Shown here: positions 9,632-43,647 of the stretch, one piece after another
Layout of the letters: every line of letters begins with the position of its first letter
Position numbering within the stretch: the stretch's first letter is position 1
Translations under genes and position numbers: made by a program
Notes under the pieces: model-generated
Told to the model about the DNA's origin: nothing
The model's input: only the letters and a program-made list of their open reading frames with translations
The model's database searches: none
From: Candidatus Omnitrophota bacterium
GTDB taxonomy: Bacteria; Omnitrophota; Gorgyraeia; Gygaellales; Profunditerraquicolaceae
NCBI GenBank assembly: GCA_041653115.1
Contig: JBAZGA010000001.1
Coordinates: 3 to 64,002, forward strand
Direction: 5' to 3'
Length of the DNA: 64,000 nt

Positions 9632-9646
9632 AGAAGGCGGGAGTTA

Positions 9647-10969: not shown

Positions 10970-11709
10970 AACTTTATTGTTATTACACTAAATCTCACGA
11001 GTCTTTATTAAATACTTTTTTTCTTCCGTCGTTAAAAGATGATTATAAAGTAATTTTAAAAAAGGGCGAGCAAAAATGTTCAAAGGGAAGCTATAAGGAA
11101 GAAGGCTGGCTTGAAACAACAATGGGCAAAGTCGACTTTATTATTGCCGCCATACTCGATAATCGGAACAAGTTATTTCTATTTTCCGATCCGGACATCC
11201 AGTTTTTTAGAGAAACGGAAAAGTATATACTAAAAATTGCAAAAGACCAGGATATCGTCGCTCAACGCAATGACCCGTCGGGAAAGCTGTGCAGCGGATT
11301 TTTTGCCTGTCGGGCAAATGAGAAGACCCTGAATTTATGGCGGGATGTACGTAAATTTATCTGCAACAAGGAAGGCGATGATCAAGACGGACTAAATTAC
11401 TTTTTAAAATTATCGATTTTAACTTCGCCGCACCATTATTTTCGAAAAAGAATGAGTATTATTTTATCTAAGCGCGGCCTTAATTATCACAAAATTAATT
11501 GGCGATATTTACCGTCTTTTTTCTTCGGCGGCGGGATGTTAAGCGGCAGGCGCTGGGAGCCGGGCATGAGGCTCAAGATACCTAAGAATATTGCGATGCA
11601 TCATGCCAATTGGACCTTCGGAATCGAAAATAAAATTACGCAGCTGAACCTTGTTAGAAATATCTGTACCGGAAGAAAATTCGTTATAAACAGTGCAAAT
11701 AATTTATAA
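10966..11709 (+). CDS. Hypothetical protein, possible nucleotide-diphospho-sugar transferase
   Basis: 247 aa with a DxD-like 'FSDPDIQF' and no TM segments. The assignment is weak. Confidence 0.25.
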   Translation: MKLYCYYTKSHESLLNTFFLPSLKDDYKVILKKGEQKCSKGSYKEEGWLETTMGKVDFIIAAILDNRNKLFLFSDPDIQFFRETEKYILKIAKDQDIVAQRNDPSGKLCSGFFACRANEKTLNLWRDVRKFICNKEGDDQDGLNYFLKLSILTSPHHYFRKRMSIILSKRGLNYHKINWRYLPSFFFGGGMLSGRRWEPGMRLKIPKNIAMHHANWTFGIENKITQLNLVRNICTGRKFVINSANNL

Positions 11710-11714
11710 TCGCC

Positions 11715-14111: not shown

Positions 14112-15374
14112 ATGTATAAAGAAATTACAAAATGCAGGATTTGCGGAAATACGGAACTGCTGCCCATCCTTAACCTTGGCAGGCAGGCATTGACCGGAAT
14201 CTTTCCTAAAGATAAAACCCAGGAGATCACCGAAGGGCCGCTGGAGCTGGTCAAATGCAATGACGAGAATAACGCAAATTGCGGACTTGTGCAACTTAAA
14301 CATTCCTATAGCCTGCCCGAATTGTATGGGGATAACTACGGTTATAGGTCCGGGCTTAATAAATCCATGATTAAGCATTTGCATAATAAAGTAAGAGAAA
14401 TAACGAAATTGGTAGAGTTGTCCTCCGGAGACCTGGTTATTGATATCGGCAGCAACGACAGCACGCTCCTGCAGGCCTATCCCGATAATAAAGGCCTTAT
14501 TTTAGCGGGAGTAGACCCCACCGGAATAAAATTCCGGGAATATTATCCCGCGCATATCCACCTTATTTCTGAATTTTTTTCTGCCAAGGTGATAAGGAAT
14601 AAGTTTGGCCGTAAAAAAGCGAAAATAATTACTTCTATCGCCATGTTTTATGATTTAGACTCGCCGGTTGACTTTATGCGGGAAATATACGATATCCTTG
14701 ACGAAAAAGGAGTCTGGGTCTTTGAGCAAAGTTATTTGCCGAGCATGCTTGAGGTAAACGCATATGACACGGTCTGTCATGAACACCTTGAATATTATGC
14801 CTTTAAACAGATAAAGTGGATGGCTGAAAAAGTCGGCTTTGAAATACTCGATGTCAAGATAAACGCGGTTAACGGAGGAAGTTTTTCTGTAGCGGTTGCC
14901 AAAAGAAATTCCGCTTATCGGCCTAACCGCGCTTTTATCGATACCTTGTTAACGGAGGAGAAGAAAAAAGGTTTTAATACCTCGGCGCCTTATAAAGATT
15001 TTTGCCGGAGCGTATTTAAGCACAGGGATGAACTTTCGGCTTTCCTGGAAGAGATGAAAAATAAAGGAAAGATGATATTAGGATACGGCGCTTCGACGAA
15101 GGGCAACGTGATTCTTCAATTTTGTCAAATTAAGGCCGATTCGCTTCCTTTCATAGCCGAGGTAAATAAGGATAAATTCGGCGCTTTTACTCCCGGTACC
15201 TTGATCCCCATAGTATCTGAAGAAGAGGCACGGAAGATGAATCCCGACTATTTTATGGTTTTGCCCTGGCACTTTAAAGAAGGCATAATTAAGAAAGAAA
15301 GAGGCTATTTAGACTCAGGGGGGAAATTATTTTTTCCTCTCCCCGCGTTGGAAGTTTTTGAAGAGGGCGGATAA
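14112..15374 (+). CDS. SAM-dependent C-methyltransferase of the TylCIII/NDP-hexose C3-methyltransferase type
   Basis: N-terminal Zn-ribbon 'CRICGNTEL...C...C', a methyltransferase core 'LVIDIGSNDSTLL' and a conserved C-terminal Methyltransf_14-like domain. Confidence 0.55.
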   Translation: MYKEITKCRICGNTELLPILNLGRQALTGIFPKDKTQEITEGPLELVKCNDENNANCGLVQLKHSYSLPELYGDNYGYRSGLNKSMIKHLHNKVREITKLVELSSGDLVIDIGSNDSTLLQAYPDNKGLILAGVDPTGIKFREYYPAHIHLISEFFSAKVIRNKFGRKKAKIITSIAMFYDLDSPVDFMREIYDILDEKGVWVFEQSYLPSMLEVNAYDTVCHEHLEYYAFKQIKWMAEKVGFEILDVKINAVNGGSFSVAVAKRNSAYRPNRAFIDTLLTEEKKKGFNTSAPYKDFCRSVFKHRDELSAFLEEMKNKGKMILGYGASTKGNVILQFCQIKADSLPFIAEVNKDKFGAFTPGTLIPIVSEEEARKMNPDYFMVLPWHFKEGIIKKERGYLDSGGKLFFPLPALEVFEEGG

Positions 15375-24628: not shown

Positions 24629-25609
24629 ATGAATTGGAAAGATAAGGTTATTCTGTTAACCGGCGGAACGGGTTCCTTTGGACAGAAATTTACCGAGGTC
24701 ATGCTTAGTAAATATAGACCAAAAGTTATAAGAATTTTCAGCCGCGATGAATTGAAGCAATGGGAAATGGAAAGAAGAATTAATAATGACAAGCGTTTGA
24801 GGTTTTTTATTGGCGATGTCCGGGATAAAGACAGGTTAGAGCGGGCCATGGATGGAGCGGATATCGTGGTTCACGCTGCTGCATTAAAACAGGTCCCATT
24901 ATGCGAATATAACCCTTTTGAGGCCATAAAAACAAATATTCTCGGTGCCCAGAATGTAATTGAAGCGGCAATAGATCATAACATAGAAAAGGTTATTGCC
25001 ATAAGTAGCGATAAGGCGGTCAACCCGGTAAATTTATACGGCGCAACCAAGATGTGCATGGAAAAAATATTTATCGCCGCCAATGCCTATGTTGGGAAAA
25101 AAAGACAGACAAAAATAAGTTGCGCAAGATACGGTAATGTAATGGGTTCGCGGGGAAGCGTTATCCCTTTATTGAAAAAACAGAAATCAACCGGCACAAT
25201 TACTATCACAGATAAGAGAATGACCCGTTTTTGGATTACCTTAGAACAAGGGGTGGAATTTGTGGTTAGGTGCATAGAGATGATGCGGGGAGCTGAAATT
25301 TTTGTCCCTAAGGTTCCCAGCATGAAAGTTATTGACCTAGCCAGAAGTATAGCCCCCAAGTGCAAGATTAAATATATTGGCATCAGACCCGGTGAGAAAA
25401 TTCACGAATGTCTAATTACCGAAGACGAGACCGGGCATGCAAGAGAATACAAGAATTTCTTTGTAATTACTCCTGAATATCTCCGACGCTCTTCGAGGGT
25501 CTACCGGAAAGGCAGCAGGCTTTTGGAAAGCTTCAGGTATGCCAGTGATTCCAATAAGCACTGGCTGACTGAAAAAGAGTTACAAAAGACATTAAGGAAA
25601 TTGAAATGA
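24629..25609 (+). CDS. pseB: UDP-N-acetylglucosamine 4,6-dehydratase (inverting), PseB/FlaA1/CapD-like
   Basis: 'KVILLTGGTGSFGQKFTEVMLSKYRPKVIRIFSRDELKQ' is nearly the canonical PseB N-terminus, and 'YGATKMCMEKIF' is the YxxxK catalytic motif. A good RBS 'AGGAGG' lies upstream. Confidence 0.75.
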   Translation: MNWKDKVILLTGGTGSFGQKFTEVMLSKYRPKVIRIFSRDELKQWEMERRINNDKRLRFFIGDVRDKDRLERAMDGADIVVHAAALKQVPLCEYNPFEAIKTNILGAQNVIEAAIDHNIEKVIAISSDKAVNPVNLYGATKMCMEKIFIAANAYVGKKRQTKISCARYGNVMGSRGSVIPLLKKQKSTGTITITDKRMTRFWITLEQGVEFVVRCIEMMRGAEIFVPKVPSMKVIDLARSIAPKCKIKYIGIRPGEKIHECLITEDETGHAREYKNFFVITPEYLRRSSRVYRKGSRLLESFRYASDSNKHWLTEKELQKTLRKLK

Positions 25610-26760
25610 AATATACGCCGTATAGCAGGCAGACGATTGATAAAAAGGACATTAAAGCTGTACTTGGGGTCTTGAAGTCTGACTGGATTACCCAGGGGCC
25701 AAAAATAAAAGAGTTTGAGGATGCTCTTTGTGAATATGCCGGCGTTAAATATGCGGTTGTAGTCTCCAGCGGAACGGCCGCGCTGCATCTTTCTATGCTA
25801 GCGATGAATCTTAGCAAAGGCGACAGGGCAATAACCTCGCCGATTACTTTTTCAGCCAGCGCTAATTGTGTTTTATATGCCGGAGCGGTACCTCAATTTA
25901 TTGATATTAATGATAAAACCTATCATTTAGATATCGAAAAGTTAAAGACCTTTTTTAAAAAAATATCGCAAAGGAAAAAGGTCAAAGTTGTAATTCCGGT
26001 TCACTTTATGGGAACCGTTATCGATATCGAGGAAATAAAGAAGTATTGTGATAGGTACGGCATAAGAATAGTTGAAGACGCAGCTCACGCGCTGGGAGCA
26101 AGATATAAAAGCAGGGACGAATGGTTTCGGGTAGGAAGCTGTAAACATTCGGATATCGCTATATTCAGTTTTCACCCTATAAAGCATATCACTACCGGAG
26201 AAGGCGGAGCTATCCTTACGAACAACCGGAAGATTTATGAAAGGGCGTTGAGGTTACGGCATCACGGTATAATAAAAAATAAAAAACATAAGTTCTGGTT
26301 CTACGATATTCCTGAAATAGGCTTTAACTACCGAATTACAGACTTTCAGTCTGCTTTAGGAATCTCGCAGCTCAAGAAATTAGACAGAGTGGTGAAAATT
26401 AAAAAATTCCTGGCAGATAATTACAATACGCATTTTTCATCGTTAAAGATGGTAAGATTGCCTTATTCAAGGCCGGCGACGTATCCGGCATATCATTTGT
26501 ATGTAATAAGGGTGGGGAAAAATAAGCGGAATGCCTTATACAATTATTTAAGAAAAAATAATATTTTGACCCAGGTAAATTACGTCCCGGTACATTTATT
26601 ATCATACTATCGGAATAAATTTGGCTACAAAGCAGGGGATTTTCCGGTGGCAGAACGCTATTATGATGAATGTTTAAGCTTGCCTTTATACGCAGGATTA
26701 TCCCGGAATCAACAAATGAGAGTAATCGATAGTGTAAGGGGATTTTTAGAAAATGATTAA
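25606..26760 (+). CDS. pseC: DegT/DnrJ/EryC1 PLP-dependent sugar aminotransferase (PseC-like)
   Basis: 'YAVVVSSGTAALHLSM' and 'FSFHPIKHITTGEGG' (the PLP-binding lysine). It directly follows pseB. Confidence 0.75.
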   Translation: MKYTPYSRQTIDKKDIKAVLGVLKSDWITQGPKIKEFEDALCEYAGVKYAVVVSSGTAALHLSMLAMNLSKGDRAITSPITFSASANCVLYAGAVPQFIDINDKTYHLDIEKLKTFFKKISQRKKVKVVIPVHFMGTVIDIEEIKKYCDRYGIRIVEDAAHALGARYKSRDEWFRVGSCKHSDIAIFSFHPIKHITTGEGGAILTNNRKIYERALRLRHHGIIKNKKHKFWFYDIPEIGFNYRITDFQSALGISQLKKLDRVVKIKKFLADNYNTHFSSLKMVRLPYSRPATYPAYHLYVIRVGKNKRNALYNYLRKNNILTQVNYVPVHLLSYYRNKFGYKAGDFPVAERYYDECLSLPLYAGLSRNQQMRVIDSVRGFLEND

Positions 26761-27637
26761 TAACTTGGTAAAGAAAATGTGCCTGGGGACTGCTCAGTTT
26801 GGCCTGAATTATGGAATTGCCAATAGGGGGGGCAGAGTCTCAAAGGTTGAGGCATTTAAAATTTTAGAATCTGCTTCCCGGCGAGGAATAAATACTCTGG
26901 ATACAGCTTATGCCTACGGACAAAGCGAAAATATCGTCGGGAAATTCAGGATGAGGAACAATAATAATCTCAAGATTATCTCTAAATTGCCCGGCATCAA
27001 TAAGTTCGATAAATTGCGAGTCGAGGATTTATTTTATACTTCCCTTAGCAGGCTAAAAATAAGCAAGATTTACGGGTACCTTATACATGAGTTTGATGAT
27101 TTTTTAAAATATGAAAATATCTGGGGAATTCTCGAAAAGTTAAAAAAGCAGGGATTAATCCAGAAAATCGGCTTTTCTCTGTATCGGCCCGAGGAATTAA
27201 AAACGATAATTAAAAATAAGGTAAACTTCGATATTATTCAATTTCCGTATAGCATCTTTGACAGGAGGTTTGATCGCTATTTGAACGTGTTAAAGGAAAA
27301 AGGCATTGAGGTGCATGCAAGGTCGCTATTTCTCCAGGGTCTAGTTTTTTTACGGCCTGCCGGATTACCAAAAAAATTAATTAAAGCCAAGGTTTTTATA
27401 AAGAAGTTGCATCGGATTGCTGCGCAAGAAGCTATTTCTATCGATGCATTATGCCTAAATTTTGCTTTACTTAATCCCTCTGTCGATAAAGTGATATTTG
27501 GCGTAGATAACCTGGCGCAGTTAGAAACAAATATTAGGGATATAAATATGGTGGCGCGGGTAAAAAATATCTACCATAAATTAAAGAAATTAAGCATTGG
27601 CGATGAGCGAATACTGCTGCCAAATGGATGGAATTAA
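26753..27637 (+). CDS. Aldo/keto reductase
   Basis: 'CLGTAQFGLNYGIANRGG' and 'LDTAYAYGQSENIVG' are AKR family signatures. Confidence 0.6.
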   Translation: MINNLVKKMCLGTAQFGLNYGIANRGGRVSKVEAFKILESASRRGINTLDTAYAYGQSENIVGKFRMRNNNNLKIISKLPGINKFDKLRVEDLFYTSLSRLKISKIYGYLIHEFDDFLKYENIWGILEKLKKQGLIQKIGFSLYRPEELKTIIKNKVNFDIIQFPYSIFDRRFDRYLNVLKEKGIEVHARSLFLQGLVFLRPAGLPKKLIKAKVFIKKLHRIAAQEAISIDALCLNFALLNPSVDKVIFGVDNLAQLETNIRDINMVARVKNIYHKLKKLSIGDERILLPNGWN

Positions 27638-27640: not shown

Positions 27641-29692
27641 ATGAAAATCACTGCTGTAATCCAGGCAAGGGTCGGTTCGAGTAGGCTGCCGGCAAAGGTG
27701 CTGATGGATATCCAGGGAAAACCAATGCTTTGGCATATAGTAAAAAGGGTATCTTCGGCAAAGTTGATTGACGAGGTGGTCATAGCTACATCCAAAAATA
27801 ATAATAATGATCGCATAGTAAAATTTGCCAAAGAGCACGATTTTAAAATATTCAGGGGCTCGGAAAATAATTGTCTGGATAGATATTATAGGGCGGCGAA
27901 AGAACTTAAAGCCGATGTTGTGGTACGAATAACTGCGGATTGCGCTTTAATTTGCCCGGAAGTTATTGATAATGTAATATCCGAATATTTAAAAAATGGC
28001 TATGATTACGTAACAAACACAATTTATTATACCTACCCGGAAGGTTGTGATGTAGAAGTATTTTCTTTCGAAGCATTAAAAAAAGCATGGAGGGAATGCA
28101 GGGATTCTGTAGCAAGAGAACATGTTACCCCTTACTTTAAGAATTCGGGAAGATTCAGGATTAAGAATATAGAGAACAAAATTCATATTAACCCGGAAGA
28201 ATATAAGTGGTCAGTGGACAGAATAGAAGACATGGAATTTGTCAGAAGGGTTTATAAATACCTGTATCACGGTAATGTCTTTTCGTATAAGGAGATTATG
28301 GATTTATTAGAAAAGTATCCCGAGCTTAAGCAGATAAATTCAAAAGCAATAATAAATGAAGGATTTTACAGGGGCTTTTTAAAATTACCAAAAATCAAAG
28401 CCAAAAAATTAAGAATTAATAAATCGCTCCTGCTTAAAAGAAAAGCAGATAAGCTCATCCCAAATTGCAGCCAGACGTTAAGTAAAAGTTATTCACAATT
28501 TGTTTATGGGGCTGCTCCGGTATTCTTAGAGAAAGGGAAAGGAAGCCGCGTTTGGGATATTGATGGGAATGAATATATAGATTACGCAATGGCTTTAGGC
28601 CCGGTTATTCTCGGCCATAATTATCCCGCTATTACTTCCGCAATTAAGAAAATCGCGGTAAAAGGAGTGACCTTTACTTTGCCTCACCGATTAGAGGTGG
28701 AACTTGCCGAACTCCTTTGTAGAACAATACCGTGCGCAGAGATGGTTAGGTTCGGTAAAAACGGCTCTGATGCTACTTCTGGCGCAGTCAGGGTTGCCAG
28801 GGCTTTAACCGGCAGGGATAAAGTTGCCTGTTGCGGGTATCACGGCTGGCAGGATTGGTATATAGGAGTTACTACCAGGAATAAAGGGGTGCCTGGTGAG
28901 GTAAGGAAATTAACCTCGACTTTTGAATATAACAAAATAGAAACTTTGGAAAAAATTTTCGCTGAAAACCCAAAGCAAATTGCTTGCGTGATTATGGAAC
29001 CCGTGGGAGTGGTTGAGCCGGAAGACAATTTTTTACAAAAGGTTAAAGAGCTCACCCATAAAAATGGAGCAATATTAATATTTGACGAAGTTGTTACCGG
29101 GTTCCGCATAAGTTTAGGGGGTGCTCAGGAATATTTTAATGTACGCCCGGATTTAGCCTGTTTCGGGAAAGCCATGAGTAACGGTTTACCTATATCTGCG
29201 GTGGTGGGTAAGAGAGAGATTATGAAGCAGTTTGAAGAAGTATTTTATTCTTTTACCTTCGGCGGCGAGATTGTATCGATAGCCGCGGCTATTGGCACCA
29301 TAAAAGAAATAAAAGAAAAAAACGTGATCAGGCACCTTTGGGAGCAGGGGAGAAAGATAAAAGACGGGTATAATGTTCTGTCAAAAGAATATGGATTGGA
29401 AAGATATACCCAATGCATTGGATTGCCTCCAAGAACTGTTATTATATTCAAAAATAGAACAGGCCAGGACGACCTGCTTTTAAAAAGCTTATTTCAGCAG
29501 GAATGCCTAAAGAGAAAAGTCCTATTTACCGACGATCATAACATTTGTTTTAGCCATACAGATAAAGATATTGATTATACGCTTAGAGTTTATCGAACCG
29601 CCCTGGATATTCTTAGGGATGCGATTTCGAAAAATAAGGTTAGAAAGCTCTTGGAGGGCGAGTCGGTAAGACCCGTATTTAGAAAACCATAA
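27641..29692 (+). CDS. Bifunctional fusion of an N-terminal PseF/SpsF-like CMP-sugar cytidylyltransferase and a C-terminal class III (glutamate-1-semialdehyde aminomutase-like) PLP aminotransferase
   Basis: N-terminus 'MKITAVIQARVGSSRLPAKVLMDIQGKPML' matches the SpsF/PseF cytidylyltransferase family. The C-terminal ~430 aa carry 'GSRVWDIDGNEYIDY', 'FGKNGSDATSGAVRVAR' and 'ILIFDEVVTGFR', matching the class III aminotransferase / GSA-AT family. Confidence 0.65.
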   Translation: MKITAVIQARVGSSRLPAKVLMDIQGKPMLWHIVKRVSSAKLIDEVVIATSKNNNNDRIVKFAKEHDFKIFRGSENNCLDRYYRAAKELKADVVVRITADCALICPEVIDNVISEYLKNGYDYVTNTIYYTYPEGCDVEVFSFEALKKAWRECRDSVAREHVTPYFKNSGRFRIKNIENKIHINPEEYKWSVDRIEDMEFVRRVYKYLYHGNVFSYKEIMDLLEKYPELKQINSKAIINEGFYRGFLKLPKIKAKKLRINKSLLLKRKADKLIPNCSQTLSKSYSQFVYGAAPVFLEKGKGSRVWDIDGNEYIDYAMALGPVILGHNYPAITSAIKKIAVKGVTFTLPHRLEVELAELLCRTIPCAEMVRFGKNGSDATSGAVRVARALTGRDKVACCGYHGWQDWYIGVTTRNKGVPGEVRKLTSTFEYNKIETLEKIFAENPKQIACVIMEPVGVVEPEDNFLQKVKELTHKNGAILIFDEVVTGFRISLGGAQEYFNVRPDLACFGKAMSNGLPISAVVGKREIMKQFEEVFYSFTFGGEIVSIAAAIGTIKEIKEKNVIRHLWEQGRKIKDGYNVLSKEYGLERYTQCIGLPPRTVIIFKNRTGQDDLLLKSLFQQECLKRKVLFTDDHNICFSHTDKDIDYTLRVYRTALDILRDAISKNKVRKLLEGESVRPVFRKP

Positions 29693-29693: not shown

Positions 29694-30707
29694 ATGAAAG
29701 TCATTCTGATAAGCGAAGGCGGGAAGAATATAGGTTTTGGGCATATAACCAGATGTCTTGCTCTTTATCAGGCGTTTGAAGAGAGGGGAACTGAGCTGGA
29801 ATTTATAGTAAACGGTGATAATAGCATTTTAGACTTGTTAAAAGATAAATATTGTCAGATATTTAATTGGATAAAAGAAAAAAATAAAATGACCAAATTA
29901 GTAAGTAGTTCAGATATGGCTATCATCGATTCCTATTTAGCGGATAAATCACTTTATAATAGTATTTCAAAAATAACTAATGGCAGGCTGGTTATGATAG
30001 ATGACTACAATCGCTTGGAATATCCCAAGGGTATTATAGTTAATCCTTCAATTTACGGAGATAAGATAGTATATCCGCAGAAAAAAGGATTAACTTATCT
30101 ATCGGGAAAAGATTACGTAATATTAAGAAAAGAGTTTTGGAATGTTCCCGGGAAAAAAATTAATAAAAATATAAAAAAAGTAATGATAACCTTTGGCGGG
30201 GCAGATGAGAAGGATATGACCGGAAAGGTTCTGCAATTTTTAAAAGATAATGATTTTGAATTTACTAAAAAAGTCATAGTAGGAAAGGGGTTCAAGAGCG
30301 CGGAATATATACAAAAATTTAAAGATCCAATAACCGACTTAATATATTACCCGAATACGAAAGAAATGAAGGGGTTAATGCTGGAATCCGACTTGGCAAT
30401 TTCTAGCGCGGGCCAGACCCTTAATGAATTTGCCAGAGTAGGCCTTCCTACTATCGCGATAGCTTTGGCAGATAATCAGTTGAATAACGCAAAGGGATGG
30501 CAGGAGGCGGGTTTTGTTCGATACGCTGGATGGTGGCAGGACGCGAAAAGTTTAGAGAAAATAGGGCAATTTATTAATCAGCTTGCTGACCCTAACCAGA
30601 GAGCAAATATTTATCGTGCAGGAAAAAAATTCATAGACGGCAAAGGCTGTACCCGGATAGTCGATTACGTATTCAACAGGTATTATAAGGAGAATCGGCA
30701 GAATTAG
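29694..30707 (+). CDS. pseG: UDP-2,4-diacetamido-2,4,6-trideoxy-beta-L-altropyranose hydrolase (PseG-like, GT28-like fold)
   Basis: 'MKVILISEGGKNIGFGHITRCLAL' contains the GxGHxxR signature of PseG. Confidence 0.65.
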   Translation: MKVILISEGGKNIGFGHITRCLALYQAFEERGTELEFIVNGDNSILDLLKDKYCQIFNWIKEKNKMTKLVSSSDMAIIDSYLADKSLYNSISKITNGRLVMIDDYNRLEYPKGIIVNPSIYGDKIVYPQKKGLTYLSGKDYVILRKEFWNVPGKKINKNIKKVMITFGGADEKDMTGKVLQFLKDNDFEFTKKVIVGKGFKSAEYIQKFKDPITDLIYYPNTKEMKGLMLESDLAISSAGQTLNEFARVGLPTIAIALADNQLNNAKGWQEAGFVRYAGWWQDAKSLEKIGQFINQLADPNQRANIYRAGKKFIDGKGCTRIVDYVFNRYYKENRQN

Positions 30708-30716: not shown

Positions 30717-31436
30717 ATGAAAGTCATAATCAGTCAACCCAGATACTTGCCGGCCATAAACTATCTTCAACGGTTACATTTCGCTGATTTATTTGTATTC
30801 TTGGATAATGTACAGAGACAAGATCAGGGGGTCGAAAATAGAAATAAAATACTTATGAATGGCAAAGAAACCCTGCTCACTATTCCCATAGCCTCATCTC
30901 GGCTTGAGCTGATAAAAGACTCTTTGCTTGTAAATAAGCGATGGGTAAGAAAACACAAGGAAATCATACGCAATACTTATTGTAAGCACCCTCACTATAA
31001 TTACGAGATAATCAATGGTTATTATGCTGGCGCTGAAGAAATAATGGATAAAACAGGTGCTAATTTTGCGGACGTAGTGATACATTTAGTCCTTAATCTT
31101 TGTACTATATTTGGATTTAAACCTAACGTATTGCGCTCAAGTCATTATTGTTCTGCTGATAATTTAACGGGCCCTTTAAAGCTGCGGAAAATTTGTGAGG
31201 AAGCCGGAGCCTCTACCTATATTTCCGGCACCAATGGCAGGGATTATAAAGTAAAGGACGCGTTTTCGGGTTCCGGTATAGAAGTTGCCTTTCACGATTA
31301 TAAATACCCGGAATATAAACAGTATAATCAAGAGATATTCGTTCCGTGGTTATCTTTTTTTGACCCCCTATTCAACCTAGGAATAGAGGAAGTAAAGAAA
31401 TGGATTTATCAAAAACCAGAGTTCTCTTTGGAGTAG
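30717..31436 (+). CDS. WbqC-like family protein
   Basis: 'MKVIISQPRYLPAINYLQRL' is the typical WbqC-like N-terminus. Confidence 0.5.
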   Translation: MKVIISQPRYLPAINYLQRLHFADLFVFLDNVQRQDQGVENRNKILMNGKETLLTIPIASSRLELIKDSLLVNKRWVRKHKEIIRNTYCKHPHYNYEIINGYYAGAEEIMDKTGANFADVVIHLVLNLCTIFGFKPNVLRSSHYCSADNLTGPLKLRKICEEAGASTYISGTNGRDYKVKDAFSGSGIEVAFHDYKYPEYKQYNQEIFVPWLSFFDPLFNLGIEEVKKWIYQKPEFSLE

Positions 31437-31445: not shown

Positions 31446-32120
31446 ATGACGGTTTTAATAATTGTTGCTCATCCAGACGATGAAATATTGGGTTGTGGGG
31501 GCACCGCGGCATGCCTGGCGAAAAAGGGCCACGAGATTTATACGTTGATATTGGGAGAAGGAATAACTTCAAGATTCAAGAAGAGGTCGGCAAAAAAAGC
31601 AGCGCTTCAGGTTAAGAAAATCAGAGAAATGGCGGTTAGCGCTAATAAGATAATCGGGGTAAAGAAAGTTTTCTTTTCTGGTCTGCCGGATAACAGATTC
31701 GACTCTTGTGATTTGCTTGACATTGTCAGGATAATTGAAAAGAAAAAAGAAGAAGTTCGGCCCGACATTATTTTTACCCATTATGAAAAAGATTTGAATA
31801 TAGACCATCAGATAACCTATAAGGCGGTAATCACCGCCACCAGGCCTACCGAGCACGAGACGGTCAGAGAAATATATGCTTCTGAAGTCCTGTCTTCTAC
31901 TGAATGGAATTTTCCGTTAAGTTTTTCTCCTGATGTCTTTTTTGATATCCAAGGCACGCTTGCTCTGAAACTAAAAGCATTAGGAATATACAAATCGGAA
32001 ATAAGGAGCTTTCCTTATCCGCGCTCCCTGGAGGGAGTGAAATATAATGCTGCGGTTTGGGGAATGAAGACAGGATTAAGATACGCTGAGGCTTTTAAAT
32101 GCGTGCGGGTCATCAAGTGA
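31446..32120 (+). CDS. PIG-L/LmbE family N-acetyl-sugar deacetylase
   Basis: 'LIIVAHPDDEILGCGGTAA' is the AHPDDE metal-binding motif. Confidence 0.65.
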   Translation: MTVLIIVAHPDDEILGCGGTAACLAKKGHEIYTLILGEGITSRFKKRSAKKAALQVKKIREMAVSANKIIGVKKVFFSGLPDNRFDSCDLLDIVRIIEKKKEEVRPDIIFTHYEKDLNIDHQITYKAVITATRPTEHETVREIYASEVLSSTEWNFPLSFSPDVFFDIQGTLALKLKALGIYKSEIRSFPYPRSLEGVKYNAAVWGMKTGLRYAEAFKCVRVIK

Positions 32121-32134
32121 AAGGTTCAAAGCAA

Positions 32135-33199
32135 ATGAATTTGAAAATTGAAAATAGGATATTGGGGAAAGGCCAGCCAGTTTTCATCGTAGCAGAATTA
32201 TCTGCAAACCATCTTCAGAATTTCGATCTCGCCGTAAAAACAATAAAAGCGATGAAAGAATCAGGCGCCGATGCAGTGAAGCTCCAGACCTATACTCCGG
32301 ATACGATAACTATTGATTCTATCAAGGAATATTTCCAAATAAAACACGGATCTCTATGGGATGGTAAGACACTTTATCAGCTTTACAAAGAAGCGTATAT
32401 GCCATGGGAATGGCAGCCAAAACTTAAGAAAATATCACAAGATTTGGGGCTGATTTTTTTCTCTACCCCTTCCGACAAAACTTCGGTAGATTTTTTAGAA
32501 ACGATGAAAGTCCCTGCTTACAAGATTGCCTCATTTGAGATAACCGATATTCCACTGATAGAATATGTCGCATCTAAGGGGAAGCCGGTTATTATCTCGA
32601 CGGGGGTGGCCGCACTTAGCGATATAGAGAATGCTGTTAAGGCATGCAAAAGGATGAACAATGAGGAGATAGCCATCATGAAATGTACCTCCGCTTATCC
32701 TGCCGCAGCGAAAGAAATCAATTTACATACAATTCCTGATTTAGCAAAAAGATTTAATGGAGTCGTGGGATTATCCGATCATACTCTAAGTACGTCCATA
32801 CCCGTTGCCGCTATTGCCCTGGGAGCGAAAATTATTGAAAAACATTTTACCTTAAAGAGAAAAAAAGGAGGACCTGATGCGGTATTTTCTCTGGAGCCTC
32901 CTGAATTTAAAAGCATGGTAAACGCAATACGGGATGCCGAAGAGGCCCTGGGAAGAGTAACATATGAATTGTCAGCGAGCGCAAAGAAGAACAAAATTTT
33001 TGCCCGTTCTTTATTCGTTATTAAAGAAATAAATAAAGGAGATATTTTTACTGAGGATAATATAAAATCGATAAGGCCCGGGAACGGCTTACCTCCTTGT
33101 TATTTGACGGAAATTCTTGGTAAAAAAGCGAAAAAAAACATTAATAAAGGTACGCCGCTTACCCGGGATTTAATAAAAGATACAAAAATAAGGAGTTAA
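32135..33199 (+). CDS. pseI: Pseudaminic acid synthase (PseI; NeuB family with SAF domain)
   Basis: 'PVFIVAELSANHLQNFDLAVKTIKAMKESGADAVKLQT' and 'LSDHTLS...AIALGAKIIEKHFTL', followed by a C-terminal SAF domain ('RSLFVIKEINKGDIFTEDNIKSIRPGNGL'). ATG 32135 is chosen over the ORF-track start because the upstream gene ends at 32120. Confidence 0.75.
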   Translation: MNLKIENRILGKGQPVFIVAELSANHLQNFDLAVKTIKAMKESGADAVKLQTYTPDTITIDSIKEYFQIKHGSLWDGKTLYQLYKEAYMPWEWQPKLKKISQDLGLIFFSTPSDKTSVDFLETMKVPAYKIASFEITDIPLIEYVASKGKPVIISTGVAALSDIENAVKACKRMNNEEIAIMKCTSAYPAAAKEINLHTIPDLAKRFNGVVGLSDHTLSTSIPVAAIALGAKIIEKHFTLKRKKGGPDAVFSLEPPEFKSMVNAIRDAEEALGRVTYELSASAKKNKIFARSLFVIKEINKGDIFTEDNIKSIRPGNGLPPCYLTEILGKKAKKNINKGTPLTRDLIKDTKIRS

Positions 33200-33204: not shown

Positions 33205-34254
33205 TTGGGAATTAAAATAAATAAAGACCAGTATTCTTTTAATTCAAAATTTCGCGATATGCGGTTTCATTTTATAAGAGGAAACGGCCATTTCGCTAGA
33301 TATATTTTTGATAGGTTTATATGGTATTGGTACCCCCGCCTCCATATAGTAAAGAAATTTCCTGAGCACGTAGATATAGAACTAACTAATCAATGCAATA
33401 TGAAATGTCCGATGTGTTATTCAACCTTAGAACGTTTTAGAAAACTTCCAAACGGTTTTATGGATTTCAATCTTTTTAAGAAAATCATCGATGAATGCGC
33501 AGAAAACGGAGTTTTTTCGATAAGATTGAGCATACGCGGCGAACCGCTTATCCATCCTCAAATAATTGATTGTATTCGATATGCAAAATATAAAAGAATA
33601 AAAGAAGTTTCTTTTTTGACTAATGCTTTATCCTTAGATGAACATATGTCTGCCGAAATCATAAAAGCAGGTTTAGATTGGATTACGGTCTCTTTTGACG
33701 GAATGGGGGAGATATATAATAAAATTCGTAAACCCGCAGACTATGAGGGGGCGCTGAATAGAATAAGAAGGTTCTCGGAAATGAAAAAGAGCTTAGGGAG
33801 CATAAAGCCGGCTTTAAAGATTCAAACCGTCTGGCAGGCCGTAGAGAATAATCCGTCAGAATTTAATGAGATTTTTAAGAATCTTGCCGACATGATCTCC
33901 TTCAACGTATTTATAAACTATGAAGTTGCCTTTGAACATGATCCCGATTTTATATGCCCTAATCCATGGCAGCGTTTTATCATCTATTGGGACGGGAAAG
34001 TCCCTAAATGCATTAATGACGTATTCGAGCTAGATATAATAGGAGATATTAATAGCTCCACCATAAAAGAAATATGGCAGGGAGCCCTGATGCGGCGGGT
34101 AAGAAAAGATATGTTAAACAAAGATAGGCTTAAATACCCATCTTGCAGGAAATGCAGTTACGGCGCTAAAACTGAAGAGATGAAAGTAGATATCGATGGA
34201 TTAAAAATTTCCACCGAAATGCAAAAGACAGATTTTAATATTAATAAATTATGA
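33205..34254 (+). CDS. Radical SAM protein with C-terminal SPASM-like domain (TTG start)
   Basis: 'ELTNQCNMKCPMCYS' (CxxxCxxC) and a C-terminal Cys-rich region 'CPNPWQRF...PKCIND...PSCRKCSYG'. Confidence 0.6.
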   Translation: MGIKINKDQYSFNSKFRDMRFHFIRGNGHFARYIFDRFIWYWYPRLHIVKKFPEHVDIELTNQCNMKCPMCYSTLERFRKLPNGFMDFNLFKKIIDECAENGVFSIRLSIRGEPLIHPQIIDCIRYAKYKRIKEVSFLTNALSLDEHMSAEIIKAGLDWITVSFDGMGEIYNKIRKPADYEGALNRIRRFSEMKKSLGSIKPALKIQTVWQAVENNPSEFNEIFKNLADMISFNVFINYEVAFEHDPDFICPNPWQRFIIYWDGKVPKCINDVFELDIIGDINSSTIKEIWQGALMRRVRKDMLNKDRLKYPSCRKCSYGAKTEEMKVDIDGLKISTEMQKTDFNINKL

Positions 34255-38960: not shown

Positions 38961-39746
38961 ATGAAGGAACTGTTTATAAAAGATAAAGGAAATGTTATTA
39001 AATTTAAATTTTTGAAATGGGATACTGCGTTTTTTGGGGTCAAGTCTTTCCTGTTAGACTTGAAGGCCACCAGAATTAATAAGATCAGGAAAGGTTTTCC
39101 CCGGGCGGCCCTGAAAGCAATCCCGCCATCTTTTATTACCGCAAAGGTTCCTTTAAGTTATCCGCAGAAGTTTATAAATTTTTTATTCGATATAGGATTT
39201 AGATATATAGATACAGAGTTAATACTTGGGTATGTTGACAACAAGGATTTTCCTGACTATTCTCCAACGGGTGTGTCGATCAAGGGGATAAAATTATATA
39301 AAGCTAAAAAAATCCCTAAAGATGCATTCTTGTTGGGCAGAGAATTCAGTTTCACCAGATTTCATCTAGATCCCAACATACCCAGAAGAAAGGCAGAATT
39401 GTTATGGGAGAATTTCATTAGAAATTTTAAGCTATCCGATATGCAGAGCCTATACTGTGCAGAATTTAAAAATGAGACAATCGGGGCAATTTTTGTTAAG
39501 CGATATCTGCAACAAGATAAGCGGATAAGTAACCTGTTTTTGGTTTCCGTTAAAAACAAGTATAGAAATAAAAACATTGGAAGCAGACTGATACAGCATG
39601 CCTTAAAACAACTTGTAGGGTTTAGTGAAAAGATAATCGTAGAAACCCAAGCCAGAAATTTGGGGGCCGTTAATTTTTATATAAAAAATGGTTTTTTAAG
39701 GCTTTATGAAGCGAGGCTAGTCTTACATAGAGGCATTATAAAATAG
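38961..39746 (+). CDS. GNAT-fold N-acetyltransferase-like protein (possible sugar N-acyltransferase, PseH analog)
   Basis: 'LVSVKNKYRNKNIGSRLIQHALKQL' is a GNAT motif A-like stretch, and 'VNFYIKNGF' is a motif B-like stretch. Confidence 0.4.
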   Translation: MKELFIKDKGNVIKFKFLKWDTAFFGVKSFLLDLKATRINKIRKGFPRAALKAIPPSFITAKVPLSYPQKFINFLFDIGFRYIDTELILGYVDNKDFPDYSPTGVSIKGIKLYKAKKIPKDAFLLGREFSFTRFHLDPNIPRRKAELLWENFIRNFKLSDMQSLYCAEFKNETIGAIFVKRYLQQDKRISNLFLVSVKNKYRNKNIGSRLIQHALKQLVGFSEKIIVETQARNLGAVNFYIKNGFLRLYEARLVLHRGIIK

Positions 39747-40506: not shown

Positions 40507-41550
40507 ATGATGGGATTTTCAGAAAAGGATTTAATTAGACGGATAGAGTCGGATATCAAGTTGCAATGTAATACAAAAGATGAGCTGATTCCAGGTAATT
40601 TAGGTAATTCTTGGGAACCGATATTTTTAAAAGAAACCGGAAATTTGATAAATCACGATTTATCAATTAATCTGAACGTTCTTAAGAATTTCAGAAAATC
40701 ATTTGTTTTACTTGTTGATTTCCCGATAGGCAGGCAATATCTAAATATCAGAAATTTACTGGATGGTCAAAGAAGGGGGCAACAAAAAGTTATTAAGAGA
40801 CACTGGCAAATTATAAAAGAGCATAATTATGATTATTTACTGAAGAGGTATCCCTGTTCTTTAGTCGGGAACCCCTATATTTATAGATATAATGGATATT
40901 CCTTTACCTGGCGATGGATTAAGAATGTTTATTATGCAGGGCTCTTTAAAAAAATTTTAGCAGAAAAAATAAGACAGGATTTTATAATTATGGATATTGG
41001 TTGTGGTTACGGGATATTTTCTTATATATTAAAGAATGAGTTTCAAAAAAGTCACCATGTTCTGGTCGACCTTCCTCAGCAGCTTGTTTTAGCACATTAT
41101 TTCTTAGCTAAACATTTCCCCGATGCGAGAATCGCAACTTACAAAGATATTTTTGAGGTAAATAAAATTGACCGTAATTTTTTGAATAAATACGATTTTA
41201 TTTTAATTCCCTGGCATATGTATACTAAAATAGAGCAAGGGAGTATAGATGTCTTGACTAACTTTGTATCTTTCGCCGAGATGGGGAGAAAGTATTTTGA
41301 CTATTATTTAAAACAAGAGCCATTCTTGAGTGTCAAGTACTTTTTTACCATCAATCGCTTTGTTTCTGCCCCGACATATGATAACGGGCTGACCATACTG
41401 GATTATCAGCTCGCTTCTTTCAGGGCGCTGCATTTTGCCATATTTCCTTTGGTTATGGAGAGATATAGAAGAAGCCGCTTTTTTTTCTATAAATACTTTC
41501 CGCACGAATCTCAACTTTTTGAGTTTATCGGAGAAAGACAGAAAATATGA
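40507..41550 (+). CDS. Class I methyltransferase-fold protein with a long N-terminal extension (candidate CmoB-like carboxymethyl/methyl transferase)
   Basis: 'IIMDIGCGYGIFSYIL' is motif I, about 165 aa from the N-terminus, followed by 'LVDLPQQLVLAHYFLAKHFPD'. The layout (a ~120 to 160 aa N-terminal region, then the Rossmann fold) and some aromatic-rich stretches are reminiscent of CmoB. RBS AAGGAG is present upstream, and the gene sits immediately downstream of the cmoA homolog. Confidence 0.4.
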   Translation: MMGFSEKDLIRRIESDIKLQCNTKDELIPGNLGNSWEPIFLKETGNLINHDLSINLNVLKNFRKSFVLLVDFPIGRQYLNIRNLLDGQRRGQQKVIKRHWQIIKEHNYDYLLKRYPCSLVGNPYIYRYNGYSFTWRWIKNVYYAGLFKKILAEKIRQDFIIMDIGCGYGIFSYILKNEFQKSHHVLVDLPQQLVLAHYFLAKHFPDARIATYKDIFEVNKIDRNFLNKYDFILIPWHMYTKIEQGSIDVLTNFVSFAEMGRKYFDYYLKQEPFLSVKYFFTINRFVSAPTYDNGLTILDYQLASFRALHFAIFPLVMERYRRSRFFFYKYFPHESQLFEFIGERQKI

Positions 41551-42482
41551 TACCCCGGAATAATGAATTGCGTTTTGAGATAGCCACTAAATGTAATTAT
41601 CATTGTCTGATCTGCCCCCGTAATAGCATTACTCGTAAACAAGAAATTATGAGCTTAGGTTTATTTAAGAAATTATTGGATAAAATAACCAGTGAGACCT
41701 CTCAATATGATACTTTAACCTTTCCCGGCATGGGTGAGCCATTATTAGACCCTACCATAGAAGACAAGGTTGCTTACGCAAGAAATAAAAAATTCAAAAT
41801 TTTAATTTTGACAAATGGTTCCTTGCTTTCGATTAACAAATTTAATAATTTGGAAGCTCTGGGCGTAGAATCCATAAGAGTAAGTATATATGGCAACGAT
41901 CCCGTAACATACGCAAAGGTGCATGGCCTTAAAAATGGAAAAGTATTCGAAAAGATTAGGTCAAATTTAACCCAGATAGCAAAAATAAAGAAAAAAACCA
42001 AGCTTTTATTAACCTTTAATGTCGTTAATGGGCTGAATGAAGATTGCCTATCTTCCTGGATAGGATACTGGAAAGATAAGGCAGATTTATTAGAGGTGTG
42101 GCGTCCGCATAATTGGGTTAATGGGCGGTCTTACCGGCAGATACAAAACGAGAGACTAAAGACCTGCGGAAGGCCCTGGAATACTCCTTTACAGATTCAG
42201 GTAGACGGTACTGTGAATATGTGCTGTTTTGACTTTAACGGAGAGCTTACTCTTGGGGATTTAAAAAAGCAAAGCCTTAAGGAGGTATTTTCTTCGCCAC
42301 TTTATAAAAAAATCATAAGGCATCATAAGACGGGTGATTTTAAAAATAGTCATTTAATCTGTGAAATGTGCGATCAGAGGAACTCGGATAAAGCAGGGGT
42401 GATGGTATATAGCTCAAATTCTAACATTGATGAACGAATCAGGCAATATTCAACGACGTACATAAATTTTAAAACCCAATAA
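41547..42482 (+). CDS. Radical SAM protein with SPASM-like C-terminal domain
   Basis: 'EIATKCNYHCLICPRNS' (CxxxCxxC) and a C-terminal 'CGRPWNTP...NMCCFDF' auxiliary-cluster-like region. Confidence 0.6.
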   Translation: MIPRNNELRFEIATKCNYHCLICPRNSITRKQEIMSLGLFKKLLDKITSETSQYDTLTFPGMGEPLLDPTIEDKVAYARNKKFKILILTNGSLLSINKFNNLEALGVESIRVSIYGNDPVTYAKVHGLKNGKVFEKIRSNLTQIAKIKKKTKLLLTFNVVNGLNEDCLSSWIGYWKDKADLLEVWRPHNWVNGRSYRQIQNERLKTCGRPWNTPLQIQVDGTVNMCCFDFNGELTLGDLKKQSLKEVFSSPLYKKIIRHHKTGDFKNSHLICEMCDQRNSDKAGVMVYSSNSNIDERIRQYSTTYINFKTQ

Positions 42483-42504
42483 GTATTTATAAGAATTAAA
42501 TAAA

Positions 42505-43647
42505 ATGAATAGAATAATAAAAAAAGCTTTTCCCGAAAACATAAAAGCGCCTTTACGAAAAATAAGAGGCGTATATCGAGGGACTCTCGCTGCATATAAA
42601 AAATACGCAGTTCCAAAATTCTTAATTCATTTTGTCACAACTAGATGTCAGTTAAATTGCAAGCATTGTTTTTGTCCCTCTGAGTCAGACGCTTCCTCAA
42701 AAGATAAGCTTTCTTTGTCAGAACTAAAAAAGGTAATTTTGTCTTTTAATGCCCCCATTGATACGGTCGTTTTAACCGGGGGAGAGCCGTTTTTGCATAA
42801 AGACTTAGTCGAGATGGCGCTATTGTATAATTCACTGAATAAAGCCAGGATCATCTCAATAAATACGAACGGATATGCCACAGATACGATCGTTAATAGC
42901 GTCAATAAAATACTGAATGATTTAGATAATAATTCATGCCTCTCTCTGCAGGTTTCGCTCGATGGCCCTGAGAGGATTCATAATGATATCCGAGGCAATC
43001 CGTATTCATTCCAAAATGCCGCTGAAACAATAAGACGCCTTAAAAAAATACAGGTAGCGAATGATAAAATGCATATTCATACGTTATGTATAATTAATCA
43101 AAAAAATTGCAATTATCTAAAGGAATTGTCCAGCTATTGTATGGAAAATCTTAATATGCCTATCTATTTTGAGCTGGTGAGGAGAAATATCTGTGATTTT
43201 CATTCAGTAGAGTATAAACCAAGGGATGGATTAACCGGCGATTTATCTTTTGATTTAAAACGAGCCTTTAATGATATCGTACATATTTATAATCAGCAGG
43301 ATAAGCGCTTTAAAAGCAAATCCTGTTCAAGCATGATAGGCAAAATAAGGGATGAATTTACTATTGCCCGGGAAGGCAAGAGGTTATTTGCATGCATGGC
43401 GGGCAACTACGCAGGCGCACTCTTCAGCAACGGAGATGTGAGCCCCTGTGAATTATTGGATTTCCGCCTTAACTTAAGAGACTTTGATTATAATTTCCCA
43501 AAGATCTGGAATTCACCCCGGATGCGAGCCGTTGTTGAGAAAATAAGGCGTTCCTGCTTTTGTACCCTTGGCTGTTTTGTCGGTTTATCGCGTCAAAGGA
43601 TTGACTATCAACTGAAAACACTTTTTGCCAAACCGAAATTTTTATAA
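42505..43647 (+). CDS. Radical SAM protein with SPASM-like C-terminal domain
   Basis: 'VTTRCQLNCKHCFC' (CxxxCxxC), and C-terminal 'CMAGNYAGALFSNGDVSPCE' plus 'CFCTLGCFVG'. Confidence 0.6.
   Translation: MNRIIKKAFPENIKAPLRKIRGVYRGTLAAYKKYAVPKFLIHFVTTRCQLNCKHCFCPSESDASSKDKLSLSELKKVILSFNAPIDTVVLTGGEPFLHKDLVEMALLYNSLNKARIISINTNGYATDTIVNSVNKILNDLDNNSCLSLQVSLDGPERIHNDIRGNPYSFQNAAETIRRLKKIQVANDKMHIHTLCIINQKNCNYLKELSSYCMENLNMPIYFELVRRNICDFHSVEYKPRDGLTGDLSFDLKRAFNDIVHIYNQQDKRFKSKSCSSMIGKIRDEFTIAREGKRLFACMAGNYAGALFSNGDVSPCELLDFRLNLRDFDYNFPKIWNSPRMRAVVEKIRRSCFCTLGCFVGLSRQRIDYQLKTLFAKPKFL

Follow-up and report, generated by a model that had tools for sequence, protein, structure and literature searches.

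A fused SpsF-type cytidylyltransferase and class III aminotransferase in a Candidatus Omnitrophota glycan cluster, and a candidate amine-forming module for CMP-nonulosonic acids

Nonulosonic acids (NulOs), such as pseudaminic acid (Pse) and legionaminic acid (Leg), occur on cell surfaces, where flagellar assembly, phage recognition, immune evasion and serotype are under their control, and their chemical diversity is far better known than the enzymes behind it. In the ElaABC module of Acinetobacter baumannii KL49, the like of which is also found in Vibrio vulnificus, ElaB is a cytidine triphosphate (CTP)-transferase, and the Gfo/Idh/MocA protein ElaA (closest PDB relative, 3EZY) is, on the basis of crystal structures and docking, the proposed oxidant of the C8 hydroxyl of the cytidine monophosphate (CMP) sugar CMP-Leg5,7Ac2, whereas ElaC, a short-chain dehydrogenase/reductase (SDR), is the proposed reducer of the 8-keto sugar to the 8-epimer (PMC13656337). 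EpaA, a fusion of CTP_transf_3 and Aldo_ket_red domains, converts Pse5Ac7Ac to 8-epi-Pse5Ac7Ac together with the SDR EpaB, according to nuclear magnetic resonance of the capsule after complementation, and the EpaA hosts already carry PsaF beside the cytidylyltransferase domain of EpaA itself (PMC12053666). Here, we describe a gene at positions 27641–29692 (+) of a 64,000-nucleotide stretch of contig JBAZGA010000001.1 (assembly GCA_041653115.1, Candidatus Omnitrophota bacterium), hereafter referred to as the window, in which a cytidylyltransferase (CT) domain is joined to a class III aminotransferase (AT) domain. Based on analogy with the above systems, we give an even chance to the reading that this bifunctional enzyme and the adjacent aldo/keto reductase (AKR) perform C8 oxidation, transamination and CMP activation, yielding a CMP-8-amino NulO. 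The fusion itself is common; what is new here is the specific hypothesis of a CMP-sugar tailoring reaction akin to the known C8-tailoring modules of NulOs.

Gene groups of related composition can be found in the literature. The Pse cluster of Vibrio B9-25K2 contains an SpsF-like–AKR fusion followed by a dehydrogenase (PMC7371886), and in the O-antigen clusters of Legionella pneumophila serogroups (Sg) 6 and 12, individual genes are listed for PseG, a 'GSA aminomutase', a cytidylyltransferase and an aryl-alcohol dehydrogenase (PMC3694923). An 8-amino-3,5,7,8,9-pentadeoxy-nonulosonic acid of the manno configuration is known from the O-antigen of Tenacibaculum (Flexibacter) maritimum (PMC3210612). 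Literature searches returned no paper on the biosynthesis of the T. maritimum sugar and, regarding the characterisation of CT-AT or unfused AT, nothing beyond the gene listings for Legionella Sg6/12 and, for the CT-AKR fusion, the Vibrio listing. Term searches of the papers on flagellin glycosylation in Geobacillus and Clostridium gave no match to the module, the paper on the Aci/8eAci module does not mention an aminotransferase, and the genomics paper on the T. maritimum O-antigen mentions neither a class III AT nor a cytidylyltransferase.

The gene of the window is organised as follows (aa, amino acids; PLP, pyridoxal 5'-phosphate; GSAM, glutamate-1-semialdehyde 2,1-aminomutase):
27641–29692, + strand: fused CT-AT gene, a single open reading frame (ORF) with an ATG start, 683 aa plus stop, two Pfam domains
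27641–28333, + strand: SpsF-type CT domain, aa 1–231, delimited by CTP_transf_3 and the alignment with PDB 6oew
28334–28405, + strand: inter-domain linker, aa ~232–255, basic and poorly conserved, the lowest-conservation segment of the alignment
28406–29689, + strand: class III (GSAM-like) PLP-dependent AT domain, aa ~256–683, delimited by Aminotran_3, PRK06209 and GSAM structures

An earlier sequence-only reading had described a single 683-aa ORF combining a cytidylyltransferase with a class III AT and lying between the genes for AKR and PseG. This description holds: the frame contains no internal stop codon across 683 codons, both domains are recognised by Pfam, the three peptides quoted in that reading were all found in the translation, and the gene starts three bases after the end of the AKR gene, with PseG beginning two bases past its stop. 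In an alignment of 252 fused sequences, from which all conservation figures given here are derived (threshold, at least 97%), the linker shows the minimum of conservation (0.42–0.49) and yet contains only ~2% gaps. Its position is the one where separate CT proteins stop and separate AT proteins start at the unfused loci. In total, 91 positions, distributed over both the CT and AT domains, are at least 97% conserved, and the alignment shows two intact domains, each of them subject to purifying selection.

Database searches for the same architecture, suggested along with the original description, revealed more than 250 full-length fused homologues from many phyla. All members of the best 120 database clusters (58–95% identity) are 656–707 aa long and contain both domains, the closest being a 683-aa protein with 95% identity from another data set, and two further searches, seeded with members from Bacteroidota and Rhodospirillaceae, added ~200 fused homologues. 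The fusion is present in isolate genomes of Paramagnetospirillum marisnigri, P. kuznetsovii, Magnetospirillum sp. SS-4, M. sulfuroxidans, Azospirillum soli and Cytobacillus firmus; Paenibacillus thalictri and Bacillus litorisediminis are further candidate carriers among cultured bacteria. When each GTDB species was represented by one genome, relatives, either fused or unfused, were found in at least 593 species, and fused forms were seen in more than 10 phyla. The fusion is already present in the databases under generic or misleading names and is a common arrangement, one of several of these genes. No solved chain covering both domains was found among the PDB matches listed. A missed stop or a frameshift, against which a check of the frame had been advised, could in principle have created the joined gene, given that CT and AT are separate, overlapping genes in ~17 related loci and that one frameshift could join them; such an assembly or sequencing artefact is nevertheless ruled out, with hardly any residual doubt, by the invariant catalytic residues of both domains and by the more than 250 independently assembled fusions with an identical junction, isolate genomes and the 95%-identical protein among them.

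The N-terminal domain matches CTP_transf_3 (PF02348; aa 5–172; E-value, 1.4e-33; 117 bits, cut-off 22.6), and PDB entry 6oew ('Cytidylyltransferase') aligns with aa 1–231 from end to end (E-value, 1e-39). The arginine and lysine of the nucleotide-binding motif 'ARxGSxRLPxK' and an acidic residue are kept:
27683–27685, + strand: codon of R15, at least 97% conserved
27695–27697, + strand: codon of K19, at least 97% conserved
27938–27940, + strand: codon of D100, at least 97% conserved

The predicted function of the domain is CMP transfer from CTP to an ulosonic acid. It had been called PseF-like, of which 'cytidylyltransferase' stands and 'PseF' does not, since the PseF equivalog model TIGR03584 yields 30.2 bits against a cut-off of 205.7 and covers aa 5–67 only; by sequence, the domain is SpsF-type and distinct from canonical PseF. 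SpsF of Bacillus subtilis and 6oew are of the same type but stand alone, with ~250 aa and no aminotransferase, whereas the CT of the window is fused. The sps genes, SpsF included, are reported as a legionaminic acid pathway (PMC7439481).

The C-terminal domain belongs to Aminotran_3 (PF00202; aa 292–584; E-value, 2.1e-54; 185.2 bits against a cut-off of 30.5). Its nearest PDB entries, over the C-terminal 430 residues, are GSAM structures (E-value, ~1e-66), followed by FumI aminopentol aminotransferase, D-phenylglycine aminotransferase and C-6' aminotransferases. The PLP-binding lysine, whose presence the sequence-only reading had left to be checked, was found, as was the aspartate expected to contact the cofactor:
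29168–29170, + strand: K510 (codon AAA), predicted PLP Schiff-base lysine in 'CFGKAM', aligned with the GSAM 'GK' motif, at least 97% conserved
29084–29086, + strand: D482, predicted PLP pyridine-nitrogen aspartate in 'FDEVVTGFR', aligned with GSAM 'FDEVmTGFR', at least 97% conserved

K282, D482, K510 and the motif YHGWQDWY (aa 400–407) are each conserved in at least 97% of the homologues. As to the exact family, GSAMs lead both the PDB and NCBIfam matches, and JGI, like some published annotations, labels the protein 'glutamate-1-semialdehyde 2,1-aminomutase/SpsF'; a genuine HemL of tetrapyrrole synthesis was considered as a candidate. The domain shares with GSAMs the fold and the PLP-binding residues but remains under the cut-off of every NCBIfam model, including the best match PRK06209 (aa 256–682; 434.8 bits, cut-off 486) and the HemL models TIGR00713 (288.9 against 527.3), PRK00062 (299.6 against 398) and PRK12389 (257.7 against 637), and unfused and triple-fused members of the family likewise score below the cut-off (407–448). 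Moreover, the active-site lid region is ~9–10 residues shorter than in GSAM structures, and the residue opposite the substrate-carboxylate arginine of GSAM, which we take to be Arg32 in Synechococcus numbering, is K282, a lysine throughout the family. The genomic context is glycan biosynthesis rather than tetrapyrrole genes, both in the window and, with few exceptions, in 82 related loci. HemL was therefore rejected as a candidate, with a probability that we regard as negligible, and the JGI name, given the cut-offs, the lid and the lysine, is on sequence grounds a similarity label and not a function. That a class III AT is no part of the canonical Pse pathway, as previously remarked, was confirmed. 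Class III relatives known to act on sugars or polyketides (the C-6' aminotransferases GenB/NeoB, FumI and GntE) share the fold and PLP residues, and FumI and the C-6' aminotransferases offer an analogy for action on carbonyls comparable with the one proposed here.

The fusion is embedded among genes of Pse biosynthesis, of which PseB, PseC, PseG and PseI all score above their NCBIfam equivalog cut-offs:
24629–25609, + strand: PseB, inverting UDP-GlcNAc 4,6-dehydratase (TIGR03589, 487 bits against 407.75)
25606–26760, + strand: PseC, DegT-type aminotransferase (TIGR03588, 465 bits against 423.5)
26753–27637, + strand: AKR (Aldo_ket_red, 6.5e-40), ending three bases before the fusion
29694–30707, + strand: PseG, UDP-sugar hydrolase, 337 aa, without a fused GNAT domain (TIGR03590, 173 bits against 153.55)
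32099–33199, + strand: PseI, pseudaminic acid synthase (TIGR03586, 490 bits against 340.25)

For comparison, ORFs were called in the 82 related loci, in which the presence of AT was the selection criterion (82/82), and clustered all-against-all. PseI was found in 61 of the 82 loci, PseB in 58, PseG in 53 (median length, 447 aa; the 498-aa PseG of locus L082 carries GNAT domains), PseC in 53, AKR in 32, a Gfo/Idh/MocA oxidoreductase in 22 and a separate SpsF-type CT in 21, while GNAT, HisF-like, HisH-like and PIG-L proteins were found in 23, 14, 12 and 11 loci, respectively. The usual order, PseB-PseC-(AKR or Gfo)-CT-AT-PseG-PseI, is shared by loci from Acidobacteriota, Nitrospirota, Desulfobacterota, Chloroflexota, Bacteroidota and Bacillota, and likewise from Alpha-, Beta- and Gammaproteobacteria and Magnetococcales; in many relatives, a GNAT is either fused to PseG or encoded on its own. 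The CT-AT fusion occurs in 42 loci, and in 17 loci a separate CT gene directly precedes AT. In seven Acidobacteriaceae loci (L009, L010, L011 and L013–L016; ~8920–12046 in each), a Gfo-CT-AT triple fusion of ~1028–1043 aa was observed, with Gfo at aa 11–337, CT at aa 348–592 and AT at aa 604–1026, as confirmed by NCBIfam. Locus L020 contains two SpsF-type CT domains, one in a 554-aa CT-AKR fusion (8308–9972) and the other in the CT-AT fusion directly downstream (9824–12046). The gene directly upstream of the apparently lone AT of L051 encodes a different CTP_transf_3 protein, and proteins of 553–575 aa with a C-terminal Gfo domain are encoded directly upstream in L004, L037 and L050, that of L004 (8284–9999) being a methyltransferase-Gfo fusion which adjoins CT-AT. 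Because of the Rosetta-stone fusions (CT-AT, Gfo-CT-AT and CT-AKR), the three activities are considered to be linked.

Of the 38 loci whose Pse core is complete, 36 have an AKR or Gfo/Idh/MocA gene, which in most cases directly precedes CT(-AT). The AKR had been taken for a mere neighbour of the fusion: the adjacency stands, but in view of these 36 loci and the Gfo-CT-AT fusions 'mere' does not, and sequence comparison identifies the oxidoreductase, AKR or Gfo/Idh/MocA, as an integral third member of the CT-AT unit, by which an amination becomes chemically possible. The two oxidoreductase types interleave within close AT clades (the window and L081, both with AKR, cluster with L001–L005 and L082, which have Gfo), and since they alternate among such close relatives, they can be assigned the same role on this comparison, as a case of non-orthologous displacement. 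The best PDB relatives of the Gfo partner are 3q2k and 3ezy, with 3q2i also among the best matches (we take 3q2k and 3q2i to be WlbA enzymes), and UDP-GlcNAc 3-dehydrogenase, which represents a class of dehydrogenases that feed aminotransferases, ranks second among its NCBIfam matches. The second PDB relative of the AKR is L-galactose dehydrogenase. No conserved classical SDR was found among the gene clusters of the 82 loci, where AT holds that place, and in L081 and L082 no further cytidylyltransferase is encoded less than 10 kb from the fusion.

Several observations on the AT surroundings may be added. A small methyltransferase family of ~230 aa adjoins AT in six loci (L081, 12073–12768; L005, L026, L045 and L046 are among the others) and may methylate the new amine or a hydroxyl. 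In L062 (Priestia megaterium SI1-IITJ; 3665–5395), a 576-aa fusion of a NeuB-like domain (aa 21–325) and an SpsF-type CT (aa 330–567) is followed downstream by an unfused AT, so that this CT family has NeuB-like proteins as a further fusion partner. The AT of L052 and L064, ~50% identical to that of the window, lie outside a recognisable Pse context, next to a BNR-repeat protein and multihaem cytochromes, respectively, and some members of the AT family, such as these, may have other substrates.

Comparison with the described systems shows where the window module agrees and where it departs. As in ElaABC, a CT and an NAD(P)-dependent oxidoreductase occur together in a NulO cluster, with a remote secondary hydroxyl as the predicted target and a keto sugar as the proposed intermediate; a Gfo/Idh/MocA partner occupies the same position in many relatives of the window module, and this partner and ElaA are both nearest to 3EZY. 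Unlike ElaABC, which includes the SDR ElaC, the window has a class III AT; ElaB is a NeuA/PseF-type CT, whereas that of the window is SpsF-type, and the parent sugar and oxidoreductase are legionaminic acid and Gfo in the former and pseudaminic acid and AKR in the latter. EpaA of A. baumannii prophages, compared here by its described architecture, has a CT fused to a tailoring AKR, with pseudaminic acid as the substrate. In the window, genes of these two families are neighbours, the L020 protein beside the CT-AT fusion matches the EpaA architecture, and the SpsF-like–AKR fusion of Vibrio B9-25K2 is comparable. The partner in EpaA is AKR, with EpaB as SDR and an epimer as product, whereas in the window the partner is an aminotransferase, the predicted product is an amine, and no EpaB-like SDR is present. 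Thus, what is characteristic of Ela/Epa systems, a CT co-encoded or fused with an NAD(P) oxidoreductase in a NulO cluster, was found, while an SDR partner was not. A tblastn search of a phage collection for an EpaA-like CT-AKR protein yielded only the chromosomal 'tas' AKR in a mislabelled Acinetobacter record.

Pairs of a sugar dehydrogenase and an aminotransferase are well known (WbpB/WbpE-WlbA/WlbC, GnnA/GnnB and NtdC/NtdA, as well as KdnB/KdnA for Kdo8N). In such pairs, NAD(P)-dependent oxidation of C-OH to C=O, often by a Gfo/Idh/MocA enzyme, is followed by PLP-dependent transamination, and the logic proposed for the window is alike. The aminotransferases of these pairs are members of the DegT/aspartate-aminotransferase sugar family with UDP-sugars, sugar phosphates or Kdo as substrates, whereas the AT of the window is class III, is fused to a cytidylyltransferase and presumably has a C9 ulosonic acid as substrate.

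Starting from the observed architecture, catalytic residues, conservation, gene order and fusion patterns, we infer the substrate, the carbon attacked, the redox direction, the amino donor and the order relative to CMP attachment. PseB, PseC, PseG and PseI, with an N-acylating step, would build a pseudaminic-acid-type NulO, which the SpsF-type domain would activate with CTP to a CMP-sugar. The NAD(P)-dependent AKR (or Gfo) would then oxidise a secondary hydroxyl to a ketone, most likely the C8 hydroxyl to a methyl ketone, and the class III PLP domain would transaminate it. The predicted product is a CMP-activated 8-amino-8-deoxy derivative, namely 5,7,8-triamino-3,5,7,8,9-pentadeoxynon-2-ulosonic acid, which would enter the polysaccharide made by the remaining cluster (calculated [M-H]- of the CMP-sugar, 637.188, 0.984 Da below the 638.172 of CMP-Pse5Ac7Ac), and the trio would represent a C8-tailoring module of the Ela/Epa kind with the ketoreductase replaced by a transaminase. 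The sequence-only reading had proposed an additional amination coupled to CMP activation, for example at C-8 or C-9; the coupling is favoured, as a prediction, by the gene order, the Rosetta-stone fusions and the likeness to ElaABC and EpaAB, and of the two sites C-8 is favoured, the precedents all being at C-8. C9 of Pse is a methyl carbon with no oxygen to oxidise, which makes amination at C-9 implausible, and that site was rejected. The oxidation expected of the AKR is not without parallel, judging by its PDB relative L-galactose dehydrogenase. For the combination of oxidoreductase, SpsF-type CT and class III AT as such, a role as a route to 8-amino (5,7,8-triamino) NulOs is proposed tentatively, as a possibility that falls a little short of even.

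A number of points weigh against this reading. The choice of C8 rests on analogy and on our own chemical argument about 4-keto elimination. AKRs usually run in the reducing direction, and the reading needs an oxidation by an AKR. Biochemical or glycan-structure evidence was found for no carrier of the module. The number of GNATs per complete locus is 0, 1 or 2 in 9, 22 and 7 cases, respectively, and an additional N-acyltransferase for the new amine is thus not universal; an extra GNAT, tried as a marker of that amine in the 38 complete loci, was discarded as uninformative for this reason. Tenacibaculum was not among the named matches of the profile search seeded with Bacteroidota fusions, a result that does not count as a negative for the T. 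maritimum link. Residue 102 of the window protein is alanine, whereas at least 97% of the 252 homologues have proline there (TGDCP motif). A second CT, of the NeuA/PseF type, is encoded in the window 23 kb upstream of the fusion, because of which CMP activation in this organism could, strictly speaking, do without the fused CT. With regard to the residue at position 102, its codon lies at 27944–27946 (+), and the window reads TADCA against TGDCP in 6oew, the catalytic-looking D100 being kept.

The same oxidation and transamination could take place at another carbon, C4, or on the free sugar or a hexose before CMP attachment, the fused CT then activating the finished amino sugar. The AT-CT fusion suits AT acting before CT as well as the reverse, and the presence of a CT of its own in EpaA, though hosts have PsaF, hints that tailoring may precede activation; in addition, the non-Sg1 clusters of Legionella carry the unfused module, and non-Sg1 strains reportedly make 4-epi-legionaminic acid. 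Nevertheless, the published precedents for CT-linked oxidoreductases are all at C8, literature searches returned no 4-amino NulO, and we expect on chemical grounds that a CMP-sugar with a 4-keto group, beta to its anomeric centre, would be unstable and prone to elimination. C8 is preferred over C4 because of these precedents and of the position of a 4-keto group relative to the CMP-bearing anomeric carbon, and we consider the C4 or pre-CMP variant unlikely, although it deserves to be kept in mind.

Less probable than that is tailoring of an N-acyl side chain (for example, 3-hydroxybutyryl to 3-aminobutyryl) by the oxidoreductase and AT, or the formation by them of a separate amino compound that is attached to the sugar. 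The N-acyl groups of Pse and Leg are highly diverse, a side-chain amination had been suggested in the sequence-only reading, and the window has extra tailoring genes (WbqC, PIG-L, AsnB-like, methyltransferases and radical S-adenosylmethionine (SAM) enzymes); the minimal locus, in contrast, consists of PseB, PseC, oxidoreductase, CT, AT, PseG(-GNAT) and PseI, with no enzyme that forms or ligates an acyl chain, and the fusions to the cytidylyltransferase and the Gfo dehydrogenase tie AT to the nucleotide-sugar step. We think it a shade more doubtful still that the pair works in reverse, AT deaminating a free amine to a ketone that the AKR reduces, which would exchange NH2 for OH or epimerise the nitrogen-bearing carbon. 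Transamination is reversible, AKRs are typically NADPH-dependent reductases, racemases and epimerases occur among class III enzymes, and a PIG-L deacetylase in the window and in 11 related loci could supply the free amine. In most loci, however, a deacetylase is lacking, and with it the free amine on the sugar, the AKR can be exchanged for Gfo/Idh/MocA enzymes, the closest named relatives of which are sugar dehydrogenases, and a reductase acting on the keto product of PseB would give the NH2-to-OH change without any AT.

If the reading of C8 oxidation and transamination is true, the hydroxyl-to-amine module would explain the origin of the T. maritimum 8-amino sugar and would add a new CMP-sugar to the repertoire, in which a free amine would bring a different charge. 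Sialic-acid-like sugars of a triamino and potentially zwitterionic kind would then be common on environmental bacteria and not a curiosity of one fish pathogen, and a compact cassette of three activities, sometimes on one polypeptide of ~1028 aa, would be available for the chemoenzymatic preparation of amino-functionalised sialic acid analogues. The widespread misnaming of these proteins as glutamate-1-semialdehyde aminomutases would be corrected as well. A possible lead comes from Magnetospirillum gryphiswaldense, in which three unassigned CMP-linked keto acids of m/z 679.1983, 693.2139 and 707.2296 were reported, the authors favouring a C10 backbone (bioRxiv 10.64898/2026.04.20.719630). The [M-H]- values calculated for a CMP-triacetamido NulO and for the same sugar with one or two methyl groups added (+CH2 and +2CH2; 679.1982, 693.2138 and 707.2295) equal these masses, this composition being isomeric with acetimidoyl plus O-acetyl forms, and Magnetospirillum/Paramagnetospirillum relatives of M. 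gryphiswaldense carry the CT-AT fusion; the match is a lead, not evidence.

Nearly the whole window is one same-strand glycan cluster, which ends at ~57.6 kb and is followed by pgk and tpiA. In addition to the genes listed above, the surroundings of the fusion include (single numbers are start positions from the gene order):
21985, + strand: AsnB-like protein
23849, + strand: transglutaminase-like protein
30717–31436, + strand: WbqC-like protein (PF08889, 3.3e-49), locus-specific
31446–32120, + strand: PIG-L-type deacetylase (PF02585, 4.8e-26), locus-specific
33205, + strand: radical SAM/SPASM protein
34256, + strand: methyltransferase
35198, + strand: PFTS-motif protein
37146, + strand: ABC transporter

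The WbqC-like and PIG-L genes are locus-specific N-acyl tailoring genes outside the conserved trio. They lie between PseG and PseI, with no PseH-type GNAT nearby: no GNAT is encoded between PseC and PseI in the window, and a 261-aa GNAT protein is found at 38961–39746. In related loci, PIG-L occurs with formyltransferases (L008, 13028–14642). A deacetylase plus formyltransferase logic has reportedly been described for the free-amine and formyl NulOs of Ca. Kuenenia, which the arrangement in the window and L008 resembles.

A second NulO module is located at 2504–6125 (+) of the window:
2504–3301, + strand: NeuB-family protein, 265 aa, without a SAF domain
3302–4450, + strand: NeuC-like UDP-GlcNAc 2-epimerase
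4456–5169, + strand: NeuA/PseF-type cytidylyltransferase (best PDB matches, 9ftb NeuA and 6ifd)
5166–6125, + strand: D-2-hydroxyacid dehydrogenase

The cytidylyltransferase of this module shares 25% identity with the fused CT over 69 aa only and, from its gene content, the cluster appears to make two different CMP-ulosonic acids.

Radical enzymes and methyltransferases are unusually numerous in the window (9647–10969, 14112–15374, 33205–34254 and 41547–43647). They include a C-methyltransferase (Methyltransf_14/13), a radical SAM protein that binds B12 and three radical SAM proteins, of which two have SPASM domains, and at least seven SAM methyltransferases are distributed across the cluster, a gene content that points to sugars with C- or O-methyl groups. 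At the end of the cluster, an O-antigen-ligase-like gene (Wzy_C; 54176–55381) precedes that of a 749-aa protein with a spermine/spermidine-synthase-like domain (aa 278–435), located at 55384–57633 (+).

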